Part shown: positions 583-30,104 of the stretch, one piece after another
Layout: the number at the start of each line of letters is the position of its first letter
How positions within the stretch are numbered: position 1 is the stretch's first letter
Source: a virus
Lineage: Duplodnaviria > Heunggongvirae > Uroviricota > Caudoviricetes
Strand: one strand, 5' to 3'
Virus record (IMG/VR): IMGVR_UViG_2778261509_000010
Location: 1-32,038 of that record
DNA: 32,038 bases
Translations under genes and position numbers: made by a program
Notes under the pieces: model-generated
Seen by the model: only the letters and a program-made list of their open reading frames with translations
The model's database searches: none
What the model was told of the DNA's origin: nothing

Positions 583-1596
583 TTACTCTACTGTGGACAC
601 TGTGTGGACACTCTCGGCCTCAGTACCACCTCTTAGCGGATTAAGAGAAATGGCGTCCTGAAGGTACTCTGGCGCAAAATGAGCGTAAACCATAGTTTGT
701 TCAATCCGCGTGTGACCTAGTATCCGTTGTAGCGTGATAATACTTCCTCCATTAATCATGAAATGAGTGGCAAAGCTGTGCCTTAGTGCATGTGTGGCTT
801 GCCCCATTGGCAAATCCGGTTTTATTGCTTTCATTGTTCGTCTGAAGCGAGGGTAATCAGCATCAGGGAATAAAAAACCTCGTTTGTTATCCGCGATCAT
901 TTTGGCAACAGCCTCTGAGATCGGGACGGTGCGTGGTTTGTTTGTTTTCGTTTTAACAAACGTGACGCGGTTATGGATGATATTTTCTGCTTTCAAACGA
1001 GCTGCTTCTCCCCAACGTGCTCCAGTACTCAGGCAAAGAATCGCAATCTTTTTATTGTCGCCGTCAAGAGCAGCAAGCAGTAAGGCAATTTCTTCCTGCG
1101 TGAGATAGCCTGTGTCTGGTTTTTCCTCCTTAAGCCTTTTTGTCCCTCTGATAGGGTGCTCACCAAAGAATAACTCCGCTTCAATCAGGGCTGTAAACAT
1201 GCCGCTAATACATGTTAAATCACGATTGATACTCGAAGGTTTAATACCCTGACTTCTTCGGGTGGCGCAGTACTGGCTGATAAGCGATTTCGTAATTTGA
1301 AATGCGCATGGGTCATTCGTTATTTTTGTGAAGATTTCAATTTTTCCAAGATTAGATTTCCCATGCTCTTCGTGTTTACCCTTTAAATCCCACCAGATCT
1401 GTGTCAGCTCCGACAGACGTCGCTTGTCTGTTGGTTTTGATAGCCATTCTTTATTGTGGTGGTTGTACAACGTGTATTTCTCGAAAGCGACAGCTTCGCT
1501 TTTCTTATCAAACTTCCTACGGATGCGTTTTCCATTACGTCCAGTAGGGCGGATGTCCACTTCATATCGACCATCATCGAGTTTTTTGATTGCCAT
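583..1596 (-). CDS. int: Tyrosine integrase (337 aa)
   Basis: ATG at 1596 with GGAGGG Shine-Dalgarno upstream; C-terminal HALRHSFATHF...LGH...TMVYAH catalytic motifs of tyrosine recombinases; adjacent to att core. Confidence 0.95.
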   Translation of the reverse strand: MAIKKLDDGRYEVDIRPTGRNGKRIRRKFDKKSEAVAFEKYTLYNHHNKEWLSKPTDKRRLSELTQIWWDLKGKHEEHGKSNLGKIEIFTKITNDPCAFQITKSLISQYCATRRSQGIKPSSINRDLTCISGMFTALIEAELFFGEHPIRGTKRLKEEKPDTGYLTQEEIALLLAALDGDNKKIAILCLSTGARWGEAARLKAENIIHNRVTFVKTKTNKPRTVPISEAVAKMIADNKRGFLFPDADYPRFRRTMKAIKPDLPMGQATHALRHSFATHFMINGGSIITLQRILGHTRIEQTMVYAHFAPEYLQDAISLNPLRGGTEAESVHTVSTVE

Positions 1597-3893: not shown

Positions 3894-4165
3894 GTATTCG
3901 TATTGAAATTGGCGAACGTTATGTCGTTACCAGTGACAGCTTTCAGTTTATTCTCCACGAGAAAAAGAGAGCGGAAAGCGGTAAAAACGCCGGTCAGGAA
4001 TGGCTGGCAGTGGTTGGTTATTACCCGAAATTAAGCCAGCTCGTTTCCGGCCTGATGCATCACGATATTCTGACCGGAAGCGCAAAGTCTTTTGCTGATT
4101 TAAACGCGCAGGTTGAGCAACTCAGCAGGCGTTGTTCAGAGGCTTTTGGCTCATATGGCCGTTAA
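3890..4165 (+). CDS. Small early hypothetical protein (orf83-like position)
   Basis: ATG at 3890 with GGAGA Shine-Dalgarno; overlaps the start of A. Confidence 0.5.
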   Translation: MSIRIEIGERYVVTSDSFQFILHEKKRAESGKNAGQEWLAVVGYYPKLSQLVSGLMHHDILTGSAKSFADLNAQVEQLSRRCSEAFGSYGR

Positions 4166-6455
4166 AGCCTCCGGGCGTTTTGTCCCTCCGTCAGCATTTG
4201 TTGCAGGCACCGGTAAGGCGTTTACCGGTGCTTATGCATGGAACGCGCCACGCGAGGCTGTCGGGCGCGAAAGACCCCTTACACGTGACGAGATGCGTCA
4301 GGTGCAAGGTGTTTTATCCACGATTAACCGCCTGCCTTACTTTTTGCGCTCGCTGTTTACTTCACGCTATGACTACATCCGGCGCAATAAAAGCCCGGTG
4401 CACGGGTTTTATTTCCTCACATCCACTTTTCAGCGTCGTTTATGGCCGCGCATTGAGCGTGTGAATCAGCGCCATGAAATGAACACCGACGCGTCGTTGC
4501 TGTTTCTGGCAGAGCGTGACCACTATGCGCGCCTGCCGGGAATGAATGACAAGGAGCTGAAAAAGTTTGCCGCCCGTATTTCATCGCAGCTTTTCATGAT
4601 GTATGAGGAACTCAGCGATGCCTGGGTGGATGCGCATGGCGAAAAAGAATCGCTGTTTACGGATGAGGCGCAGGCTCACCTCTATGGTCATGTTGCTGGC
4701 GCTGCACGTGCTTTCAATATTTCCCCTCTCTACTGGAAAAAATACCGTAAAGGACAGATGACCACGAGGCAGGCATATTCTGCCATTGCCCGTCTGTTTA
4801 ACGATGAGTGGTGGACTCATCAGCTTAAAGGCCAGCGTATGCGCTGGCATGAGGCGTTACTGATTGCTGTCGGGGAGGTGAATAAAGACCGTTCTCCTTA
4901 TGCCAGTAAACATGCCATTCGTGATGTGCGTGCACGCCGCCAGGCAAATCTGGAATTTCTTAAATCGTGTGACCTTGAAAACAGGGAAACCGGCGAGCGC
5001 ATCGACCTTATCAGTAAGGTGATGGGCAGTATTTCTAATCCTGAAATTCGCCGGATGGAGCTGATGAACACCATTGCCGGTATTGAGCGTTACGCCGCCG
5101 CAGAGGGTGATGTGGGGATGTTTATCACGCTGACCACGCCGTCAAAGTATCACCCGACACGTCAGGTCGGAAAAGGCGAAAGTAAAACCGTCCAGCTTAA
5201 TCACGGCTGGAATGATGAGGCATTTAATCCAAAGGATGCGCAGCGTTATCTCTGCCGTATCTGGAGCCTGATGCGCACGGCATTCAAGGATAATGATTTA
5301 CAGGTCTACGGTTTGCGTGTCGTCGAGCCACACCACGACGGAACGCCGCACTGGCATATGATGCTTTTTTGTAATCCACGCCAGCGTAACCAGATTATCG
5401 AAATCATGCGTCGCTATGCGCTCAAAGAGGATGGCGACGAAAGAGGAGCCGCGCGAAACCGTTTTCAGGCGAAACACCTTAACCGGGGCGGTGCTGCGGG
5501 GTATATCGCGAAATACATCTCAAAAAATATCGACGGATATGCACTGGATGGTCAGCTCGATAATGATACCGGCAGACCGCTGAAAGACACTGCCGCGGCT
5601 GTTACCGCATGGGCGTCAACGTGGCGCATCCCGCAATTTAAAACGGTTGGTCTGCCGACAATGGGGGCTTACCGTGAACTACGCAAATTGCCTCGCGGCG
5701 TCAGCATTGCTGATGAGTTTGACGAGCGCGTCGAGGCTGCACGCGCCGCCGCAGACAGTGGTGATTTTGCGTTGTATATCAGCGCGCAGGGTGGGGCAAA
5801 TGTCCCGCGCGATTGTCAGACTGTCAGGGTCGCCCGTAGCCCGTCGGATGACGTTAACGAGTATGAGGAAGAAGTCGAGAGAGTGGTCGGCATTTACGCG
5901 CCGCATCTCGGCGCGCGTCATATTCATATCACCAGAACGACGGACTGGCGCATTGTGCCGAAAGTTCCGGTCGTTGAGCCTTTGACTTTAAAAAGCGGCA
6001 TCGCCGCGCCTCGGAGTCCTGTCAATAACTGTGGAAAGCTCACCGATGGTGATACTTCGTTACCGGCTCCCACACCTTCTGAACACGCCGCAGCAGTGCT
6101 TAATCTGGTTGATGACGGTGTTATCGAATGGAGTGACCCGGAGGTTGTGAGGGCGCTCAGAGGTGCATTAAAATGCGGACTGAGAACACCAAATCGTCAG
6201 CAAAGAAACGGAAGTCCGTTAAAACCGCATGAAATAGCGCCATCAGCCAGGCTGACCAGGTCGGAACGATTGCAAATTACCCGTATTCGCGTTGATCTTG
6301 CTCAGAACGGTATCAGACCTCAGCGATGGGAGCTTGAGTCGCTGGCGCGTGGGGCAACCGTAAATTATGACGGGAAAAAATTCACGTATCCGGTCGCTGA
6401 TGAGTGGCCGGGATATTCAACTATAACAGAGTGGAATCAATTTGATGACGGGTAA
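4155..6455 (+). CDS. A: Rolling-circle replication initiator A (HUH endonuclease)
   Basis: HUH-like motif PHWHMMLF and paired tyrosines in AGYIAKYISKNIDGY; ATG at 4155 preferred (the ORF-track start at 4113 is a TTG). Confidence 0.9.
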   Translation: MAVKASGRFVPPSAFVAGTGKAFTGAYAWNAPREAVGRERPLTRDEMRQVQGVLSTINRLPYFLRSLFTSRYDYIRRNKSPVHGFYFLTSTFQRRLWPRIERVNQRHEMNTDASLLFLAERDHYARLPGMNDKELKKFAARISSQLFMMYEELSDAWVDAHGEKESLFTDEAQAHLYGHVAGAARAFNISPLYWKKYRKGQMTTRQAYSAIARLFNDEWWTHQLKGQRMRWHEALLIAVGEVNKDRSPYASKHAIRDVRARRQANLEFLKSCDLENRETGERIDLISKVMGSISNPEIRRMELMNTIAGIERYAAAEGDVGMFITLTTPSKYHPTRQVGKGESKTVQLNHGWNDEAFNPKDAQRYLCRIWSLMRTAFKDNDLQVYGLRVVEPHHDGTPHWHMMLFCNPRQRNQIIEIMRRYALKEDGDERGAARNRFQAKHLNRGGAAGYIAKYISKNIDGYALDGQLDNDTGRPLKDTAAAVTAWASTWRIPQFKTVGLPTMGAYRELRKLPRGVSIADEFDERVEAARAAADSGDFALYISAQGGANVPRDCQTVRVARSPSDDVNEYEEEVERVVGIYAPHLGARHIHITRTTDWRIVPKVPVVEPLTLKSGIAAPRSPVNNCGKLTDGDTSLPAPTPSEHAAAVLNLVDDGVIEWSDPEVVRALRGALKCGLRTPNRQQRNGSPLKPHEIAPSARLTRSERLQITRIRVDLAQNGIRPQRWELESLARGATVNYDGKKFTYPVADEWPGYSTITEWNQFDDG

Positions 6456-6597
6456 TCGAATGGAATGATCCGGCGGTCGTGAGGGCGCTCAGAGGTGCAT
6501 TAAAACACGGTCTGAGAATACCAAATCGTCAGCAAAGAAACGGAAGTCCGTTAAAACCGCTTGCATTTGTGCCATCGCGAGGCTGATCAAATCAGGT
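6455..6597. repeat. Decayed direct duplicate of the A gene 3' region (copy of about 6123-6260)
   Basis: Long near-identical runs (GTGAGGGCGCTCAGAGGTGCATTAAAA; CCAAATCGTCAGCAAAGAAACGGAAGTCCGTTAAAACCGC) repeated immediately after the A stop codon. Confidence 0.75.
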
Positions 6598-6684
6598 TTG
6601 TGATAAATTACTAGTATTTATATAGACCTCGCTCAGTATGGCATCACACAGAAGTAATGTAAGCGTGGGGGGCGTGGTGTACCA

Positions 6685-6713
6685 TTGATATACGACGGTC
6701 GAAAATTTACATA
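6685..6713 (+). promoter_or_regulatory. Candidate sigma70 promoter for the cargo membrane gene
   Basis: TTGATA, 17-nt spacer, TACATA upstream of the 6729-7361 ORF; by eye only. Confidence 0.3.
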
Positions 6714-6872
6714 GCCGATTTCCTGTGATTGGTTTTCGTTATGCACTCTTTTCTGAAGAGATTAACTACTGATAGACTCAGGTTGGATGTCAGAATCGCT
6801 ATAGATTTCTTGCTATATATGTATTTTTCAATGAAAATGATCTCTGATTTAAACTGTAGTAAGGTGATTGGT

Positions 6873-7361
6873 ATGGATGGTTTATGGGAAAAAATATCGT
6901 CATATAATATATTTAATAATCTTTTTCCAGGTGCTCTTTTTATTTATCTTCTTGAGAGAATGACGAAGATCGTTTTATCTGGCGATGATTTAATAAAAAA
7001 TGTTGTCCTCTATTATTTTGTTGGCTTAGTCATTGGCCGGATTGGTTCTATCGTATTGGAACCTTTTTTAAAACTATCGCGTTTGATTAAGTTTGCTCCT
7101 TATAAAGATTATGTGTCAGCATGTGGTGTGGATGGAAAAATTGAAACTTTGCAAGAGATTGCGAATATGTATAGGACGATATTTTCAATGTCAATTATTC
7201 TTTTGGCGACATTGTGCGTTGTAGGACGGTTTACTGGCGAGACATATGGCTTATCTAAAATAACGTTGGCGGTTTTTGCTATTTTGTTTGTTGTCTCATA
7301 TATTAAACAAATAAGATACATAATATATAGAGTAAATGCTGTTAATAATAAGCTGCCGTAA
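6873..7361 (+). CDS. Multi-pass inner-membrane protein, cargo gene (about 4 TM segments)
   Basis: ATG at 6873 with AAGGTG Shine-Dalgarno 6 nt upstream; ORF is open from a TTG at 6729 (ATG at 6741 also possible). Hydrophobic segments FPGALFIYLL, VVLYYFVGLVIGRIGSIVL, IFSMSIILLATLCVVG, ITLAVFAILFVVSYI; strongly AT-rich. Confidence 0.6.
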   Translation: MDGLWEKISSYNIFNNLFPGALFIYLLERMTKIVLSGDDLIKNVVLYYFVGLVIGRIGSIVLEPFLKLSRLIKFAPYKDYVSACGVDGKIETLQEIANMYRTIFSMSIILLATLCVVGRFTGETYGLSKITLAVFAILFVVSYIKQIRYIIYRVNAVNNKLP

Positions 7362-7371
7362 GGCAGCTTTT
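7351..7371. terminator. Bidirectional intrinsic terminator between convergent cargo genes
   Basis: Hairpin AGCTGCC-GTAA-GGCAGCT overlapping the plus-gene stop, followed by TTTT on plus and an AT-rich tract on minus. Confidence 0.5.
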
Positions 7372-7374
7372 GAA

Positions 7375-8466
7375 TTATTCTTCGGTTCTATAGTTACTAA
7401 TGTATGATCGTGGAGTGGCTGTTTTCCATCCTGCCCTTTCAGGAGCATTATAAAAATGGTACTTACCAAGCCCCTCGGTGGCGATAACTTTCGCTCCTCG
7501 TCGAGTAAAGGCATTAATTACAGCTTGATGGGGATGTTTATCTGAACCTGGGGCACATGATACAAATGCGGTTATCTCCCTTTTTTCGCCTTCATTTACA
7601 ATGTTACCAACAAGTTTATCGAGAACATCAGGGCCTACATTTCTCCGGCTACCATGATGAGGTACTTGAATGAATCTTAATGATTCTTTATTAATGTATT
7701 GGGAGGCTTGATCTAAGGCTGTTATACCAGCATCGCCAGTGAACACTAACGTTCTTCCATCAATCTCAAGTTTCAAAATGACACTTGAGTTATTTTGTGC
7801 CGAGGTGGTATCGTCATTATCAATACCTTCATCAGTAAACCATTCAGCAACGTAATCAATAAATTTCTTCGTTTTTTCAACTACAGACTCAAAGACTGCT
7901 TTTAGTACTTCAAATCCAGCTGTATCCTCAGCTTTTTTGGGCATTCTTGCGAAATCAGGTATTAGAGTCTCATAGTAAGATTGGGTTGGCCCGATAACAA
8001 CCAGAGTAGCATTATCCCAGGTCATTCCTTGAAAAGGCTCTTTTATTTCAATTCCTTTTTTTTCCGCTAATTTGACAGCGTCATAAGCTTTTTGTAAGTT
8101 TTCTTTCATTCGATTTGCAATACTGGCATCAGTTATCCTGCCATCTGCAAACTCACTTGCGAGACCTTGATTATGTTCCCAAGGCTTATGAATCCAAAAC
8201 TCTTTTACTTCTGCATTTTCTAGAACAGATGTAAGTCCACCGACGTGGTCACCATCGGGGTGTGTGGAGATAAGCAAGTCAATAGTTTTTGTGCGGTAGT
8301 ATTTTTCAATATGCTCAATGACTTGTTCTCCGGTGCTGGCATATCCTGCATCAATAACGACAACTTTTTGTTCATCTCTTGAACCATGTAGGTTTCCCCA
8401 TCTGATGCAGATCGCATCGCCGCTTTTTTTTTCGCCAACAGCTAGAAAATCAATTTCGTAACCCAT
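7375..8466 (-). CDS. ComEC-like metallo-beta-lactamase-fold hydrolase (putative nuclease), cargo gene (363 aa)
   Basis: MBL motifs STHPDGDHVGG (residues ~67-77), VPHHGS and KHPH, resembling the ComEC C-terminal / Lactamase_B_2 pattern; ATG at 8466 with AAGGA Shine-Dalgarno; AT-rich. Confidence 0.8.
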   Translation of the reverse strand: MGYEIDFLAVGEKKSGDAICIRWGNLHGSRDEQKVVVIDAGYASTGEQVIEHIEKYYRTKTIDLLISTHPDGDHVGGLTSVLENAEVKEFWIHKPWEHNQGLASEFADGRITDASIANRMKENLQKAYDAVKLAEKKGIEIKEPFQGMTWDNATLVVIGPTQSYYETLIPDFARMPKKAEDTAGFEVLKAVFESVVEKTKKFIDYVAEWFTDEGIDNDDTTSAQNNSSVILKLEIDGRTLVFTGDAGITALDQASQYINKESLRFIQVPHHGSRRNVGPDVLDKLVGNIVNEGEKREITAFVSCAPGSDKHPHQAVINAFTRRGAKVIATEGLGKYHFYNAPERAGWKTATPRSYISNYRTEE

Positions 8467-8628
8467 TCCATATCCTTATTAAACTGTGAATTAACATGAA
8501 TCCAAGATGTTAAATCATATGGATAATAACGCAACTTTTCCGCAGTAAATACTGTGAGCGGATTTAATCTCGTCAGAACTAAAAGCAAGTAGTGTGACGA
8601 GGGACAATGAGTCTCTTTGGGGCGTTGG

Positions 8629-9168
8629 CTATGACACTGACGCAACCAGATTAACGCCGTGAGTCAGCAGATTTGTAATCACACCGGCAATGACCCCAGG
8701 AGTCCCATCTTTCACCGCACTGATCACTTTATCCCCCATCGTTTCATTTCCACCAAGCACCTCGGGTTTTTTGTTAAGAACTGTGAGCGCTTTTTCAGTA
8801 AGTCGAACATCGTAAAAATACGACTGATGGTCTGTGTTGTACTGAATGTACCCGTTTTCACAGAGAAAATTGAATGTACCTTCAACCACACTACGCAACT
8901 GATTTAACACTTTCATTTCTGGTGAGTTAAGTTGGTCAAAGTAGTCATCAGGTAGCGCGGCGTTAAATTTGTCGTAGTTAATCACCTGTGGTACGGGAAA
9001 ATTTTCCCATAGTACTGCAAAGATTTCCGCCGTTTGTTGGTTAAATAAATCGAGATTTTTCGACATGCAAAATTCCATTTCTTTTGATAATGAGTGGGTT
9101 AAACGCTGGACGAGGCAGATTACCACTCTGGCACAAAACAATGATCTTAGTTCACGCGAAGTTGACAT
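8629..9168 (-). CDS. Hypothetical cargo protein with Gly-rich hydrophobic C-terminus (start uncertain, 145-179 aa)
   Basis: ORF open from ATG at 9168; alternative ATG at 9066 (MSKNLDLF...). C-terminal GTPGVIAGVITNLLTHGVNLVASVS looks like a membrane-interacting tail. No family recognised. Confidence 0.55.
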   Translation of the reverse strand: MSTSRELRSLFCARVVICLVQRLTHSLSKEMEFCMSKNLDLFNQQTAEIFAVLWENFPVPQVINYDKFNAALPDDYFDQLNSPEMKVLNQLRSVVEGTFNFLCENGYIQYNTDHQSYFYDVRLTEKALTVLNKKPEVLGGNETMGDKVISAVKDGTPGVIAGVITNLLTHGVNLVASVS

Positions 9169-9259
9169 ATATACCGATAAGCTGGTTGCGCAGGCAACTA
9201 GCGTAGAACTCGCTCAGGTCATCAAGATGCTATTGAATTATATTCGAATGCACAAATAA
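9065..9259 (+). CDS. Possible small protein (64 aa), divergent from and overlapping the minus-strand cargo ORF
   Basis: ATG-initiated ORF; a plus-strand intrinsic terminator lies downstream at 9399-9425; no obvious Shine-Dalgarno. Conflicts with the 5' extension of the 8629-9168 ORF. Confidence 0.25.
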   Translation: MQNSISFDNEWVKRWTRQITTLAQNNDLSSREVDIYTDKLVAQATSVELAQVIKMLLNYIRMHK

Positions 9260-9398
9260 AATGATCTGTATCAATCTGTTAGGTGTCGTTTGTAAAAATG
9301 TGTGGACACGATTGTTCTGCTAATTGTTGTCAACATGTGCGTCAACAGTGAGATTGGTGCATTGCGCGGCCAGTGACAACTTTAAAAATTGGCCAAAA

Positions 9399-9425
9399 CC
9401 GGCACTATGAATGCCGTTTTTTTTG
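9399..9425 (+). terminator. Intrinsic terminator (plus strand)
   Basis: Stem CGGCA / TGCCG with 7-nt loop followed by T8 (9417-9424). Confidence 0.5.
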
Positions 9426-9582
9426 TGTTTTTTTCTGCGATACTCCTATTTTTAGCAGTGCATGCAATATGTGCGTGGTTTTGCATGTGCCTAAGTTGCA
9501 TGTTCTGGCTGTGCACCGTCAGGACGGACGCCCCTCAAAAGTGGTAATGCACCTGCATTAAAACCGACCTATGAAGCGGGCG

Positions 9583-9601
9583 GGCGAGGCGGGGAAAGCA
9601 C
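9583..9601. other. cos: cos-like cohesive-end sequence (GGCGAGGCGGGGAAAGCAC)
   Basis: 19-mer identical to the P2 cohesive-end sequence as I recall it; correct position between the cargo region and Q. Confidence 0.6.
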
Positions 9602-9743
9602 TGCGCGCTGGCGGTGGTGCTGATTTTATTTTTTCAGCGTCTCAGCGCGTCGTGACGGCGCTTAGTCTACCCGTTGTGGTGTTGGTGTGTCTGCGGGGTG
9701 TTTTGTGCGGTGGTGAGCGTGTGAGGGCGTGATGACGGGATGT

Positions 9744-9766
9744 AAAAAAGCCGCCCGCAGGCGGCG
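9744..9766 (-). terminator. Intrinsic terminator after Q (minus strand)
   Basis: GCCGCC-TGCG-GGCGGC hairpin followed by a T-run on the minus strand, immediately downstream of the Q stop. Confidence 0.6.
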
Positions 9767-9770
9767 ATGT

Positions 9771-10805
9771 TCAGCCGTTGTCAGTGTCCAGTGAGTAGTT
9801 TTTAAAGCGGATGACATCCTGACCGAGCCAGCCGTTTATTTCCCGAATCCTGTCCTGTAACGGGATAAGCTCATTGCGGACAAAGACCTTTGCCACTTTC
9901 TCAATATCTCCCAGCGACCCGACATTCTCCGGCTTGCCGCCCATCAACTGAAAGGGGATGCGGTGCGCGTCCAGCAGGTCAGCGGCGCTGGCTTTTTTGA
10001 TATTAAAAAAATCGTCTTTCGTCGCCACTTCACTGAGCGGGATAATTTTAATGCCGTCGGCTTTTCCCTGCGGGGCGTAGAGAAACAGATTTTTAAAGTT
10101 GTTGCGGCCTTTCGACTTAACCATGTTTTCGCGAAGCATTTCGATATCGTTGCGATCCTGCACGGCATCGGTGACGTACATGATGTATCCGGCATGTGCG
10201 CCGTTTTCGTAATACTTGCGGCGGAACAGCGTGGCCGATTCATTCAGCCAGGCAGAGTTAAGGGCGCTGAGATATTCCGGCAGGCCGTACAGCTCCTGAT
10301 TAATATCCGGCTCCAGCAGGTGAAACACGGAACCGGGCGCGAAGGCTGTCGGCTCGTTGAAGGACGGCACCCACCAGTAAACATCCTCTTCCACACCACG
10401 GCGGGTATATTTTGCCGGTGAGGTTTCCAGTCTGATGACTTTACCGGTAGTGCTGTAACGCTTTTCCAGAAACGCATTACCGAACACCAGAAAATCCAGC
10501 ACAAAGCGGCTGAAATCCTGCTGGGAAAGCCACGGATGCGGGATAAATGTCGAGGCCAGAATATTACGTTTGACGTAAATCGGTGAGCTGTGATGCACGG
10601 CAGCACGCAGGCTTTTTGCCAGACCGGTAAAGCTGACCGGTGGCTCATACCATCTGCCGTTACTGATGCACTCGACGTAATCCAGAATGTCACGGCGGTC
10701 GAGTACCGGCACCGGCTCACCAAAGGTGAATGCCTCCATTTTCGGGGCGCTGGCGGTCATTGTTTTTGCCGCAGGTTGCGGTGTTTTCCCTTTTTTCTTG
10801 CTCAT
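9771..10805 (-). CDS. Q: Portal protein (344 aa)
   Basis: Position and size; start overlaps the P stop (ATGA). Confidence 0.9.
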   Translation of the reverse strand: MSKKKGKTPQPAAKTMTASAPKMEAFTFGEPVPVLDRRDILDYVECISNGRWYEPPVSFTGLAKSLRAAVHHSSPIYVKRNILASTFIPHPWLSQQDFSRFVLDFLVFGNAFLEKRYSTTGKVIRLETSPAKYTRRGVEEDVYWWVPSFNEPTAFAPGSVFHLLEPDINQELYGLPEYLSALNSAWLNESATLFRRKYYENGAHAGYIMYVTDAVQDRNDIEMLRENMVKSKGRNNFKNLFLYAPQGKADGIKIIPLSEVATKDDFFNIKKASAADLLDAHRIPFQLMGGKPENVGSLGDIEKVAKVFVRNELIPLQDRIREINGWLGQDVIRFKNYSLDTDNG

Positions 10806-12577
10806 CAGTAAAACTCCAGAATGGTGGATGTCAGCGGGGTGCTGATACCGGCGGTGAGTGGCTCATTTAACAGGGCGTGCATGGTCGCCCAGGCGAGGTC
10901 GGCGTGGCTGGCTTCCTCGCTGCGGCTGGCCTCATAGGTGGCACTGCGTCCGCTGCTGGTCATGGTCTTGCGGATAGCCATAAACGAGCTGGTGATGTCG
11001 GTGGCGCTGACGTCATATTCCAGACAGCCACGGCGGATAACGTCTTTTGCCTTGAGCACCATTGCGGTTTTCATTTCCGGCGTGTAGCGGATATCGCGCG
11101 CGGCGGGATAGAACGAGCGCACGAGCTGGAACACGCCGACACCGAGGCCGGTGGCATCAATACCGATGTATTCGACGTTATATTTTTCGGTGAGTTTGCG
11201 GATGGATTCAGCCTGAGTGGCAAAGTCCATGCCTTTCCACTGGTGACGCTCAAGTATTCTGAATTTGCCACCGGCCACCACCGGCGGTGCCAGCACCACG
11301 CATCCGGCGCTGTCGCCACGGTGTGACGGGTCGTAACCAATCCATACCGGGCGGGAACCGAACGGATTTGCGGCAAAGGGTGCATAGTCTTCCCATTCTT
11401 CCAGCGTGTCGACCATGCAGCGTTGCAGCTCCTCGAACGGGAACACCGACGCCTTGTCGTCAACAAATTCACACATGAACAGGTTTTTAAAATCGTCGGC
11501 GCTGTTTTCGCGTTTGAGCTGCTCAATGTCGAACAGCGTGCAGCCACCTTTCAGGGCGTCCTCAATGGTGACAATCTGCCGCCACTGGCCGTCCGCACAG
11601 AGAAGACCACCGGCAAGGGCGTTATGACTGACGTCGATTTCCACGCGTTCGGCGGCGCTGGCGCGTCCCCGGTTGAACAGTTCACCTGACCAGAACGGGT
11701 AGGCGTCGTGCGCCAGCGTGGACGGGGTGGAGAAATAGGTCGAGCGCAGGTGACTCTGTGAGGCCATACCTGATGCTACCTTACGCAGTACCTGAAAATT
11801 CGGAATCCAGAAAATCTCGTCGACGTACAGGTCGCCGTTATGGCTCTGTGCGGTGTTGGAGTTGGTGCCGAGAAAAATCAGTTTTGCACCGTTATTGCCC
11901 AGGACAATCGGGTCACCGGTCAGGTCAACGTCAACCAGCCGGGCAAAGGCAATGATGTATTCGCGGAACACATACGCCTGCGTTTTACTGGCCGACAGAA
12001 AAATCTGGTTATGGCCGGTTTTCAGGGCGCGCAGCAGCGCCTCGCGGGAAAAATAAAACGTCGCGCCAATCTGGCGGGATTTCAGGATATCGCGGATGCG
12101 GTGCTCAAGCCCGGCGCGATACCAGTGCAACTGATAGTCGAAAGACTGCTCAAAGAAAATCTGCTCCAGCTTTTCGATGGCCTCGTCACTGAAAAAATTC
12201 TTTTTCGGTTTGCGACGCCCGCCTTTGTTGCGGTTAGCGACGTTCGGATTAAGGTCTGCTTCGTTGCCGGTCTGGCTGTAGCGGTTTACCCGTGCCAGTC
12301 GTTCAATCTGGCGTCCGAGCAGGTCAATTTCCTTGAAGTCACCGCCGGTTTTCTGCGGTTTGATGATGAGCTGAGTCAGCCGCGCTTCCAGACTCATTTC
12401 GACACGGCTGATGGGGGCAACGCTGTCCCAGCCGTCGCGCTGTTTCCAGCTCTGCACCGTCGGGCGTTTCATCTGCAACATGGCGGCAATCTGCGGCACG
12501 GAAAACCCCTGCCAGTACAGCAGCGCCGCCTGACGACGCGGGTCGTGTAAAAGAGTGGTGTCTGTGGTGATGGTCAT
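10805..12577 (-). CDS. P: Terminase large (ATPase) subunit (590 aa)
   Basis: ATG at 12577 (MTITTDTTLL...) with GAGGT Shine-Dalgarno; the ORF-track start at 12607 adds 10 codons. Confidence 0.9.
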   Translation of the reverse strand: MTITTDTTLLHDPRRQAALLYWQGFSVPQIAAMLQMKRPTVQSWKQRDGWDSVAPISRVEMSLEARLTQLIIKPQKTGGDFKEIDLLGRQIERLARVNRYSQTGNEADLNPNVANRNKGGRRKPKKNFFSDEAIEKLEQIFFEQSFDYQLHWYRAGLEHRIRDILKSRQIGATFYFSREALLRALKTGHNQIFLSASKTQAYVFREYIIAFARLVDVDLTGDPIVLGNNGAKLIFLGTNSNTAQSHNGDLYVDEIFWIPNFQVLRKVASGMASQSHLRSTYFSTPSTLAHDAYPFWSGELFNRGRASAAERVEIDVSHNALAGGLLCADGQWRQIVTIEDALKGGCTLFDIEQLKRENSADDFKNLFMCEFVDDKASVFPFEELQRCMVDTLEEWEDYAPFAANPFGSRPVWIGYDPSHRGDSAGCVVLAPPVVAGGKFRILERHQWKGMDFATQAESIRKLTEKYNVEYIGIDATGLGVGVFQLVRSFYPAARDIRYTPEMKTAMVLKAKDVIRRGCLEYDVSATDITSSFMAIRKTMTSSGRSATYEASRSEEASHADLAWATMHALLNEPLTAGISTPLTSTILEFY

Positions 12578-12750
12578 GAATACCTCGCCGTGATGAATAC
12601 ACGGCAAGGCTACTGAGTCGCGCCCCGCGATTCGCTAAGGTGCTGTTGTGTCAGTGATAAGCCATCCGGGACTGATGGCGGAGGATGCGCATCGTCGGGA
12701 AACTGATGCCGACATGTGACTCCTCTAATCACTATTCAGGACTCCTGACA
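12578..12750. promoter_or_regulatory. Divergent late promoter region (P leftward, O rightward)
   Basis: Non-coding region between divergent late operons; no consensus element could be pinned down by eye. Confidence 0.4.
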
Positions 12751-28461: not shown

Positions 28462-28941
28462 ATGATGCTCGCGTTAGGTATGTTTGTTTTTATGCGCCAG
28501 ACGCTGCCACACCAGACCATGCAGCGTGAATCAGATTATCGCTGGCCGTCAAATTCCCGTATCGGTAAACGGGATGCCTTTCAGTTTCTCGGTGTTGGCG
28601 ATGAAAACATCACGCTTGCCGGTGTGCTTTATCCTGAACTGACCGGCGGAAAGCTGACGATGACCACGCTCAGGCTGATGGCAGAGGAAGGCCGGGCGTG
28701 GCCGTTGCTGGATGGCACCGGCATGATTTACGGCATGTATGTCATCAGCAAGGTGAGTGAAACAGGGAGTATTTTCTTTGCAGACGGCACACCCCGGAAA
28801 ATTGATTTTACGCTGTCGCTCACCCGCGTTGATGAATCACTGGCCGCGCTTTATGGCGATATCGGTAAACAGGCGGAATCGCTTATCGGTAAGGCTGGCA
28901 GTATGGCGACTAAATTCACGGGTATGACGGGGGCGGGATAA
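28462..28941 (+). CDS. U: Tail protein U (tail terminator, 159 aa)
   Basis: AAGGAGG Shine-Dalgarno; position and size. Confidence 0.85.
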   Translation: MMLALGMFVFMRQTLPHQTMQRESDYRWPSNSRIGKRDAFQFLGVGDENITLAGVLYPELTGGKLTMTTLRLMAEEGRAWPLLDGTGMIYGMYVISKVSETGSIFFADGTPRKIDFTLSLTRVDESLAALYGDIGKQAESLIGKAGSMATKFTGMTGAG

Positions 28942-30104
28942 TGCTGGATGCACTGACATTTGATGCAGGCAGTACGCTGACGCCGGATTACATGCTGATG
29001 CTCGACAGCAGGGATATTACCGGCAATATCAGCGACCGTCTGATGAGCATGACCCTGACGGATAACCGGGGCTTTGAGGCTGACCAGCTTGATATTGAAC
29101 TGAACGATGCCGACGGGCAGGTCGGGCTGCCGGTTCGTGGCGCTGTCCTGACGGTGTATATCGGCTGGAAAGGTTTTGCCCTGGTATGTAAAGGGAAATT
29201 TACCGTTGATGAGGTTGAACACCGGGGCGCGCCGGATGTGGTCACCATCCGCGCCCGGAGTGCAGATTTTCGCGGGACGCTCAATTCCCGCCGTGAAGGC
29301 TCCTGGCATGATACCACGCTCGGTGCGATTGTTGAGGCGATAGCCTCCCGTAACAGGCTGGAAGCCAGTGTCGCTCCGTCACTGGCAGGAATTAAAATCC
29401 CGCACATCGACCAGTCGCAGGAGTCTGATGCGAAATTCCTGACCCGTCTTGCAGAACGCAACGGCGGTGAGGTCTCGGTAAAAATGGGAAAACTGTTGTT
29501 TCTCAAAGCGGGGCAGGGGGTGACGGCCAGTGGTAAAAAAATCCCGCAGATTACCATCACCCGCAGCGACGGCGACCGTCATCATTTTGCGATTGCTGAC
29601 CGTGGAGCTTACACCGGCGTAACGGCAAAGTGGTTACACACCAAAGACCCGAAGCCGCAAAAGCAGAAGGTAAAACTGAAACGCAAAAAGAAAGAGAAAC
29701 ACCTGCGCGCACTGGAGCACCCGAAAGCGAAACCAGTCACGCAGAAGAAAGCCCCTAAAGTACCGGAAGCGCGCGAAGGTGAATACATGGCCGGTGAGGC
29801 TGATAACGTTTTTGCCCTGACCACGGTATATGCCACGAAAGCGCAGGCCATGCGCGCCGCTCAGGCGAAGTGGGATAAACTGCAACGGGGCGTTGCGGAG
29901 TTCTCCATCAGCCTGGCTACCGGTCGGGCAGATATTTACACGGAAGCACCGGTTAAAGTGTCAGGCTTTAAGCGCGTCATAGACGAGCAGGACTGGACAA
30001 TCACTAAGGTGACACATTTTCTGAATAATAGCGGCTTCACGACGTCCTTAGAGCTTGAGGTCAGGCTTTCTGATGTGGAGTATGAAACAGAAGATGATGA
30101 GTGA
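28941..30104 (+). CDS. D: Tail protein D (387 aa)
   Basis: Start overlaps the U stop (TAATG); Lys-rich low-complexity linker KPQKQKVKLKRKKKEK. Confidence 0.85.
   Translation: MLDALTFDAGSTLTPDYMLMLDSRDITGNISDRLMSMTLTDNRGFEADQLDIELNDADGQVGLPVRGAVLTVYIGWKGFALVCKGKFTVDEVEHRGAPDVVTIRARSADFRGTLNSRREGSWHDTTLGAIVEAIASRNRLEASVAPSLAGIKIPHIDQSQESDAKFLTRLAERNGGEVSVKMGKLLFLKAGQGVTASGKKIPQITITRSDGDRHHFAIADRGAYTGVTAKWLHTKDPKPQKQKVKLKRKKKEKHLRALEHPKAKPVTQKKAPKVPEAREGEYMAGEADNVFALTTVYATKAQAMRAAQAKWDKLQRGVAEFSISLATGRADIYTEAPVKVSGFKRVIDEQDWTITKVTHFLNNSGFTTSLELEVRLSDVEYETEDDE

Follow-up and report, generated by a model that had tools for sequence, protein, structure and literature searches.

What does a ComEC-like enzyme do in the cargo of a temperate phage? 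The stretch of DNA considered here (the window; IMG/VR record IMGVR_UViG_2778261509_000010, positions 1 to 32,038) is a nearly complete P2-like prophage of E. coli, and the gene in question, located at 7375-8466 on the minus strand, codes for a 363-aa metallo-hydrolase of the ComEC clade with a metallo-β-lactamase (MBL) fold (PADLOC PDC-M48B; RefSeq WP_001752366). A preliminary description, made from the DNA sequence, presented this protein as a stand-alone nuclease and the probable effector of a phage defence locus. The analysis reported here revealed a near-obligate partnership, across phyla, between such MBL genes and genes for small four-transmembrane (4-TM) proteins, a modular swapping of the membrane partners, and the presence of the same membrane family beside operons of the 6A-MBL type. 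With somewhat more confidence than doubt, we consider the pair in the window a two-gene candidate anti-phage module, in which a cytoplasmic ComEC-clade DNase would be the effector and the 4-TM protein its anchor, regulator or sensor. What the analysis shows is the fold, the conservation of the catalytic residues, the near-obligate pairing across phyla, the hotspot and defence-island context and the kinship of both partners with components of validated 6A-MBL operons; the anti-phage function, the DNase activity, the direction of signalling and the topology are inferred.

The MBL-Fold Protein Is ComEC-Like at the Domain Level

The open reading frame (ORF) begins with an ATG codon that is preceded, at a distance of 7 nt, by an AAGGA Shine-Dalgarno sequence. 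Since the protein has 1199 homologue clusters at E ≤ 1e-5 and matches Pfam Lactamase_B (PF00753) above the cutoff (6.8e-12, 46.2 bits against 22.7), the gene is real and not a chance ORF. An exhaustive profile search retrieved 688 MBL clusters (50% identity) at E ≤ 1e-30. Lactamase_B_2, the Pfam family named in the preliminary description, remained below threshold (19.7 bits, cutoff 27), while the assignment to the ComEC branch made in the same place was upheld. Relatives are patchily distributed, being found in 381 of ca. 185,000 species genomes from more than 10 phyla, and most of them are not in phages but on chromosomes, in defence islands beside restriction-modification (R-M) systems. The top 150 family representatives are 250-457 aa long, none of them having the length of a channel protein. 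The window protein contains no signal peptide, transmembrane (TM) or hydrophobic segment; its MBL domain starts at residue 1, and the protein is predicted to be cytoplasmic.

The three motifs on which the original assignment was based are indeed present (STHPDGDHVGG at residues 67-77, VPHHGS at 268-273 and KHPH at 310-313), and the numbering of H69, D73 and H74 was correct. In 23 homologues with 49-80% identity, residues H69, D71, D73, H74, H93, D245, H270, H271, S273, K310 and H311 are invariant. The last histidine of KHPH, H313, can be H, R, N or S in the same set and lies outside any conserved motif.

An alignment-based AlphaFold2 model of the protein (predicted local distance difference test score, pLDDT, 81.4; predicted template modelling score, pTM, 0.83; low-confidence loops at residues 107-110 and 171-199) has the alpha-beta/beta-alpha sandwich of the MBL superfamily, and structure prediction, the check proposed for the fold, thus models it with confidence. 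The metal motifs of the superfamily, H-x-[HD]-x-D-H, a later His, a bridging Asp and a C-terminal His, are all present. MBL domains of ComEC came out on top in a profile search of PDB sequences (9ic4, 1e-11; 30bt), and 9ic4 was also the first Foldseek match of the model (1.5e-14). The aligned ComEC has its own STHPDADHIGG, NNNS and VPHHGS. By nearest neighbour, H-x-D-x-D-H, PHHGS and NNxS, the domain therefore belongs to the ComEC-type MBL clade, and the identity proposed for it is borne out by profile search, structural comparison and common motifs alike.

In the ComEC domain, the H598-x-D600-x-D602-H603 motif, together with D700, binds two Mn2+ ions, while H725 and S728 of HHGS have a role in catalysis or substrate binding; the domain cleaves DNA both as an endonuclease and as a 5'-3' exonuclease, and residues of the metal motif are needed for its activity (PMC12455585). 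An H-x-D-x-D-H motif, which had been regarded as a sign of non-standard metal coordination, is thus the norm of the clade. Residue equivalence between the window protein and ComEC rests on alignments, according to which the binuclear metal site is predicted to be complete (H69, D71, D73, H74, H93, D245 and H270/H271) and S273 would correspond to the phosphate-binding serine of the ComEC/RNase J type. The protein is predicted to be a binuclear-metal phosphodiesterase, most probably a DNase.

The likeness does not extend beyond the domain. The ComEC/Rec2 family model TIGR00361 gave 49.2 bits against a cutoff of 190, with only residues 220-331 matching model positions 558-660, and neither the OB fold nor the multi-pass channel domain of ComEC is found in the 363-aa protein. 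Judged by its domain composition, it is therefore ComEC-type at the domain level, yet not a member of the ComEC family as such. In Moorella ComEC (PDB 9IC4), the domain is the extracytoplasmic C-terminal end of a large protein that also has a channel and an OB fold. The window MBL is a separate, signal-less protein with a C-terminal extension and two insertions, which is paired with a small 4-TM protein of no relation to ComEC and is borne by a prophage and not by a competence locus. Its RefSeq name, "ComEC/Rec2 family competence protein", is misleading, being supported by neither Pfam, NCBIfam nor the models.

The insertions relative to ComEC (at ~95-140 and ~165-222) add ~100 residues. An invariant family loop, F-x-D-G-R-x-x-D-x-S, is located at residues 106-115 (DNA ~8122-8151), within an insertion that is absent from ComEC, and has a pLDDT below 50. 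This loop is a candidate for contact with the partner or for a lid over the active site.

A Four-Helix Membrane Protein Accompanies the MBL

The neighbouring gene, at 6873-7361 on the plus strand, encodes a four-helix integral membrane protein of 162 aa (PADLOC PDC-M48A; WP_001752365). Its start codon is the ATG at 6873, as indicated by homology, by the PGAP annotation and by a Shine-Dalgarno sequence AAGGTG; the mechanically delimited ORF reaches back to a TTG at 6729. In the AlphaFold2 model (pLDDT 89.7), helices comprise residues 11-31, 40-68, 89-121 and 126-157. A fold search of the PDB with this model returned generic helical hairpins only and no specific relative. At least 4253 homologue clusters make up this large family, in which a number of polar residues are strictly conserved (N12, N15, R56, S59, E63, D87, E95, N98, R101, K145, Q146 and R153). 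By the positive-inside rule, the conserved central loop (residues 61-101) and the basic C-terminal tail are predicted to face the cytoplasm. Many 4-TM records bear the RefSeq name "phosphohistidine phosphatase", which looks wrong and for which Pfam, NCBIfam and the models give no support.

Both proteins are strong matches to the two models of the PADLOC family PDC-M48, where A is the TM protein and B the MBL. The enzyme matches PDC-M48B (PDLC04676) with 7.4e-101, residues 3-357 aligning with positions 5-353 of the 357-position model, and the membrane protein matches PDC-M48A (PDLC04670) with 9.5e-51 over residues 1-159. Since the two genes are also adjacent, the locus belongs to this family.

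When genomes were searched starting from the MBL, with three profiles for the partner, an adjacent 4-TM gene was found in 75 of 80 loci from distinct species, spanning Gammaproteobacteria, Planctomycetota, Acidobacteriota, Bacteroidota, Streptomyces, Cyanobacteria and Saccharibacteria, and in 32 of 35 viral loci (contigs). The partner is usually downstream and co-directional, its start codon overlapping or abutting the stop codon of the MBL gene. The partners form three groups, of ~162, ~210 and ~240-250 aa. The reverse search, seeded with the TM protein, yielded 33 metagenome loci with full flanks, 23 of which contain a detectable MBL-fold gene that is directly adjacent to the TM gene (18 loci), separated from it by an E2/E1/JAB gene (4) or nearby (1). 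The other 10 loci have an abutting ORF of 258-317 aa with an MBL-like N-terminus, x-x-D-x-D-H and HHG, which in four of them gives a sub-threshold Lactamase_B match. The designation "stand-alone" is thus correct insofar as the ComEC channel and OB domains are missing, but the protein is one half of a conserved pair, the other half of which is encoded 13 bp away.

Five MBL subtypes are found as partners of the window-type TM family, and D73, H74, S228, D245, H270 and H271 are invariant over all of them, while H69 is replaced in three. The first histidine is lost, for example, in L116:5528-6307, L126:2441-3391 and L137:4683-5504, which read TNYDEDH, TSWDQDH and TGFDADH and keep D-x-D-H, GD and HHG. 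These His-less subtypes, which abut PDC-M48A genes, may have an altered metal site 1.

At one locus of an Acidobacteriota metagenome-assembled genome (L050:4833-6845), the two proteins are joined in-frame in a 670-aa product that contains the MBL at residues 56-416 and a 4-TM protein of the third partner group (group C) at residues 423-658, so that the MBL lies directly N-terminal to TM1. Being a single case, it is possibly artefactual: the two genes may be naturally fused, as a Rosetta-stone protein, or joined by a mistake of assembly. The top 150 family representatives and the other loci analysed contained no second fusion. The 245-aa 4-TM partner encoded at L068:6085-6822 matches PADLOC models for Csx27, the Cas13b-associated membrane protein (1.6e-6), and for PDC-M48A (1e-4); it carries motifs of both group A and group C and may thus bridge the two.

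The genes of the window pair converge, their stop codons being 13 bp apart. The same arrangement, with stops ~13-33 bp apart, is observed in all Enterobacterales P2/186-like prophages (loci L002, L082-L089, L104-L110 and L184-L196), which implies separate promoters there. In other phyla, the pair is a tight co-directional operon. A hairpin at 7350-7369, with the stem AAGCTGCC/GGCAGCTT and a GTAA loop that contains the stop codon of the TM gene, is located between the convergent stops. Its RNA folding energy is -15.4 kcal/mol (z -3.5), and none of 200 shuffled sequences was as stable. The hairpin is probably a shared bidirectional terminator, with weak U-tracts; a consensus terminator scan did not call it. 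A scan for consensus promoters gave nothing beyond chance.

Flanking genes were collected outside Enterobacterales. The 144 genes belong to 114 Pfam families and are enriched in HsdS/HsdM (type I R-M), MADS, PDC-S08, MoxR-vWA, UvrD, TOTE and Tn7 genes. No housekeeping synteny around the MBL-TM pairs was seen in this set; the surroundings that would have pointed to a housekeeping hydrolase are replaced by genes of defence islands and mobile elements. A DUF7004 gene recurs after the pair, and a gene for a DUF7017/TOTE S1-CSD/TPR protein before it, in Rheinheimera, Alishewanella and Chromatiaceae (DUF7004 loci L007, L011, L013, L024 and L031, ~6764-7309), where the pair may be part of a larger conflict island or have extra components.

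Relationship to Known Defence Systems

A related and described arrangement is the 6A-MBL operon type (Table 1, row 6a, of Iyer, Burroughs and Aravind 2006), a sister of the type II cyclic oligonucleotide-based antiphage signalling system (CBASS), in whose two-gene form the MBL is the sole candidate effector (PMC1779556). 6A-MBL is cited as being anti-phage in P. aeruginosa (van den Berg 2024, as cited in PMC13276650, 10.1101/2025.09.30.679545). Homologues of the window TM protein (42-48% identity) close operons of the order MBL, E2/E1/JAB fusion, TM. NCBIfam models for 6A-MBL cover the enzyme and cap2_3 only; the enzyme model NF058524 (cutoff 220 bits) recognized three of four MBLs tested from TM-ended operons, at 337-372 bits, and a Vibrio operon fell just under the cutoffs, with 216.8 bits for NF058524 and 305 bits, against 320, for the cap2_3 model NF058523. 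Many 6A-MBL operons thus combine a ComEC-like MBL with a third gene from the 4-TM family of the window partner. The window enzyme itself obtained only 33.9 bits with NF058524, and none of the three ORFs of the cargo island is an E2/E1/JAB gene; on these scores it belongs to a sister family of the 6A-MBL enzyme and is not a member. The operons with close TM homologues were also considered as type II CBASS, which was ruled out, their first gene being an MBL (the 6A-MBL enzyme) and no CD-NTase. At L112, L115 and L128 (and L131), four-gene arrays encode the 6A-MBL enzyme, E2-E1-JAB, a TM protein of the PDC-M48A type and a second, shorter MBL of ~294 aa, so that a single membrane protein has a different ComEC-like MBL on either side.

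MBLs are also known as protease-associated effectors. Those found with Avs, Hachiman (HamMAB), DRT and other systems are zymogens of Zn2+-dependent double-stranded DNA nucleases (PMC12642450), the active site of which is occluded by two linkers (PMC12642450; PMC13069673). The protease-activated MBLs (Avs1a-type, and those linked to Avs2/Avs4, Hachiman, DRT and Lamassu) resemble the window enzyme in being ComEC/RNase J-like and in having insertions in the MBL core. They differ in being activated by two cuts, made by a sensor-fused protease of the trypsin, caspase or subtilisin type that is encoded next to them, whereas the partner in the window is a membrane protein; no protease or NTPase gene is present in the island. 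PADLOC models for such enzymes gave graded but weak matches to the window MBL (LmuA-MBL, 2.2e-29; the reverse transcriptase (RT)-associated MBL, RTasMBL, 3e-20; Avs1a, 2.5e-14). The Avs1a equivalog NF041809 scored 62.1 bits against a cutoff of 420. The Lamassu LmuA-MBL subtype does not apply, as LmuA is matched over the MBL region only and the island has no SMC/LmuB gene. ComEC-like MBLs are thus recurrent, proven defence effectors (PMC12642450; 6A-MBL), and finding one in a phage defence hotspot is not unusual, contrary to what had been supposed; the very cassette studied here had been listed (Rousset 2022, Table S5A).

The Rst_Hydrolase-3TM system (Rousset 2022) likewise consists of a soluble hydrolase and a small multi-TM protein and shares the cos-adjacent P2/P4 hotspot ecology, but its proteins are unrelated, the hydrolase being HAD-like, and its hotspot is that of P4 satellites, not P2. 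The window pair, with its MBL-fold enzyme, was therefore rejected as Rousset's Hydrolase-3TM.

The Prophage and Its Cargo Island

The prophage comprises the integrase gene (583-1596, minus strand), replication gene A (gpA; 4113-6455, plus strand; Pfam Phage_GPA, 2.5e-123), the gene for portal protein gpQ (9771-10805, minus strand; Pfam Phage_portal), the terminase gene (10805-12607, minus strand) and the tail genes up to gpD at 28941-30104, next to which is a host peptidase U32 gene. Between gpA and gpQ lies a cargo island (6456-9770) with a GC content of 0.37-0.42, compared with 0.54-0.57 in the flanks. It contains three genes: the two of the pair, at 6873-7361 (plus strand, 162 aa) and 7375-8466 (minus strand, 363 aa), and a third at 8629-9066 (minus strand, 145 aa). 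The 19-nt cohesive-end (cos) sequence of P2, GGCGAGGCGGGGAAAGCAC, is exactly matched at 9583-9601 on the plus strand, within the island. This match confirms a P2-like phage with intact packaging signals.

The cos-proximal region between gpA and gpQ of P2-like prophages is a hotspot and a reservoir of anti-phage systems (Rousset 2022, PMC9122126). The location claimed for the gene, the gpA-portal defence hotspot of P2, is thus borne out by gpA, the portal gene and cos. Table S5A of Rousset 2022 lists the exact cassette, WP_001752367 + WP_001752365 + WP_001752366. The full island was found in 23 of 5426 complete E. coli genomes. Variants of the pair with 58-80% identity occupy the gpA-portal slot of P2/186-like prophages in other E. 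coli, in Klebsiella and in Yersinia, each with a convergent TM gene of 158-162 aa, and the pair is also present in the isolated phages P24E6b, D8, 11W and 12W.

The product of the third ORF, WP_001752367, has a hydrophobic C-terminal tail. Its gene is upstream of the MBL gene and co-directional with it; the family is limited to Enterobacterales, where it takes the portal/cos-proximal first slot of P2-like hotspots, beside unrelated cargo in Salmonella and Klebsiella. This ORF was ruled out as a component of the module, both because it is missing from the E. coli 75% variant and the Yersinia loci and because of the unrelated cargo beside its relatives in the Salmonella/Klebsiella hotspots.

Discussion

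The features of the MBL that had seemed odd are ordinary for the ComEC branch, and the locus belongs to a catalogued, unvalidated family, PDC-M48. We propose the following mechanism. The MBL would act in the cytoplasm as the catalytic effector, hydrolysing DNA in a metal-dependent manner; its 4-TM partner would hold or regulate the nuclease at the inner membrane, would link its activity to a sign of infection (for instance, incoming DNA or a perturbed membrane) and might be a co-effector as well. We prefer this reading because of the chemistry expected from homology, because defence MBLs of the clade are nucleases, because 6A-MBL systems that lack a TM protein exist and leave only the MBL as their effector, and because the active site is invariant while the partner changes rapidly. 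The label "effector" given to the MBL in the preliminary description appears plausible on this analysis but was overstated, the membrane partner being a serious alternative or a co-effector.

Several points weigh against the proposed module. PDC-M48 is a database candidate, unpublished and unvalidated and with no described mechanism, as PDC-x systems are in general unpublished candidates (PMC11811056); our literature search found no mention of PDC-M48 and no experiment on the pair, and Rousset 2022 (PMC9122126), where the cassette was catalogued, does not include it among the systems reported as active; the cassette may or may not be one of the five clones that gave no protection in that study. 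The genes are convergent and not operonic in the window, and in Enterobacterales they are not co-transcribed. The three groups of 4-TM partners are not demonstrably homologous (hhalign probabilities of 0.5-17%), and the co-divergence of MBL and TM proteins in a mirror-tree comparison (r = 0.76 overall) falls to 0.11 among distant pairs. In the model, the insertions at ~95-140 and ~165-222, which are partly of low confidence, might occlude the active site, and constitutive nuclease activity should therefore not be assumed. Finally, the TM gene of 6A-MBL+TM operons sits at the effector slot of CBASS, so that killing could be the task of the membrane protein.

The last point leads to the main alternative, in our estimate rather unlikely but one to be taken seriously, in which the membrane protein kills the cell by pore formation or depolarization (abortive infection) and the MBL is the sensor or activator that, for example, recognizes or processes phage nucleic acid and gates the 4-TM protein; the effector label would then have been put on the wrong gene. 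The position of TM homologues with 42-48% identity at the end of MBL-E2/E1/JAB operons, whose type II CBASS sisters have the effector there, agrees with such a role, as do the size of the TM family, with its at least 4253 clusters and strictly conserved polar residues, and the fact that hydrolase+TM, TIR+TM and RT+TM systems of the same P2/P4 hotspots commonly have the TM protein as their effector (PMC9122126). However, two-gene 6A-MBL works without a TM protein (row 6a of Iyer 2006), and an MBL can therefore be the effector; the characterized defence MBLs of the clade are all nucleases (PMC12642450); the catalytic residues of the MBL are invariant, while the TM partner is swapped among three unrelated-looking groups; and the TM model bears no likeness to known pore-formers. 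That the MBL cleaves a phosphodiester other than DNA, either lipid head groups, as a Pce-like enzyme recruited by the TM protein, or cyclic (oligo)nucleotides, in an Apyc1-like counter-defence or regulatory role, would fit a phage-borne gene with a membrane partner. We consider it improbable, since sequence searches detect ComEC and not Pce, the 5'-phosphate serine of the ComEC/RNase J type in HHGS and the NNxS motif are conserved, and Apyc1-type and phosphodiesterase relatives are far more distant; a dedicated anti-defence role is also hard to reconcile with the fact that most family members are chromosomal and lie next to R-M systems in defence islands, not in phages. A non-immune origin, as a degenerate remnant of competence or DNA uptake or as a housekeeping hydrolase, is suggested by the PGAP name "ComEC/Rec2 family competence protein" and by the sub-threshold TIGR00361 match, but that match (49 bits against 190) covers the MBL part only, of a protein with no OB, channel or TM segment. 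Its patchy distribution (381 of ~185,000 species genomes), the absence of conserved housekeeping neighbours and the location among the cargo of a prophage hotspot, where the GC content is at odds with that of the flanks, also contradict such an origin, which is very improbable and effectively refuted by domain architecture and genomic context.

A bolder idea, to which we give little credence at present, extends the proposed module of a DNase effector and a 4-TM partner: the pair could be a "split, inverted ComEC", in which a cytoplasmic DNase docked on a membrane protein destroys phage DNA as it crosses the inner membrane, with the PDC-M48A-type 4-TM protein as a common module for at least five subfamilies of ComEC-like MBLs, including the validated 6A-MBL systems. 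If true, this would reveal a previously unrecognized MBL-membrane axis in bacterial immunity, with nothing but the layer of regulation (absent, E2/E1/JAB or a second MBL) setting its members apart.

Among the effectors of bacterial immunity, ComEC-like MBL nucleases are becoming recognized as a major class, and they have so far been understood only where they are licensed by proteases (Avs, Hachiman) or associated with ubiquitin-like machinery (6A-MBL). The MBL-4TM pair is the simplest form, consisting of an enzyme and a small membrane protein, and is widespread, occurring also in isolated coliphages. Since the host is an E. coli with a P2-like prophage, cloning, challenge of lysogens and point mutagenesis are routine. 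The RefSeq names of both proteins are due for correction: the MBL should no longer be called a "ComEC/Rec2 family competence protein", nor the TM protein a "phosphohistidine phosphatase". Control of a ComEC-type nuclease by a membrane protein, or of the membrane protein by the nuclease, if demonstrated, would clarify the role of the third gene of many 6A-MBL operons, and the pair would allow one to test whether immunity acts on DNA at the membrane.

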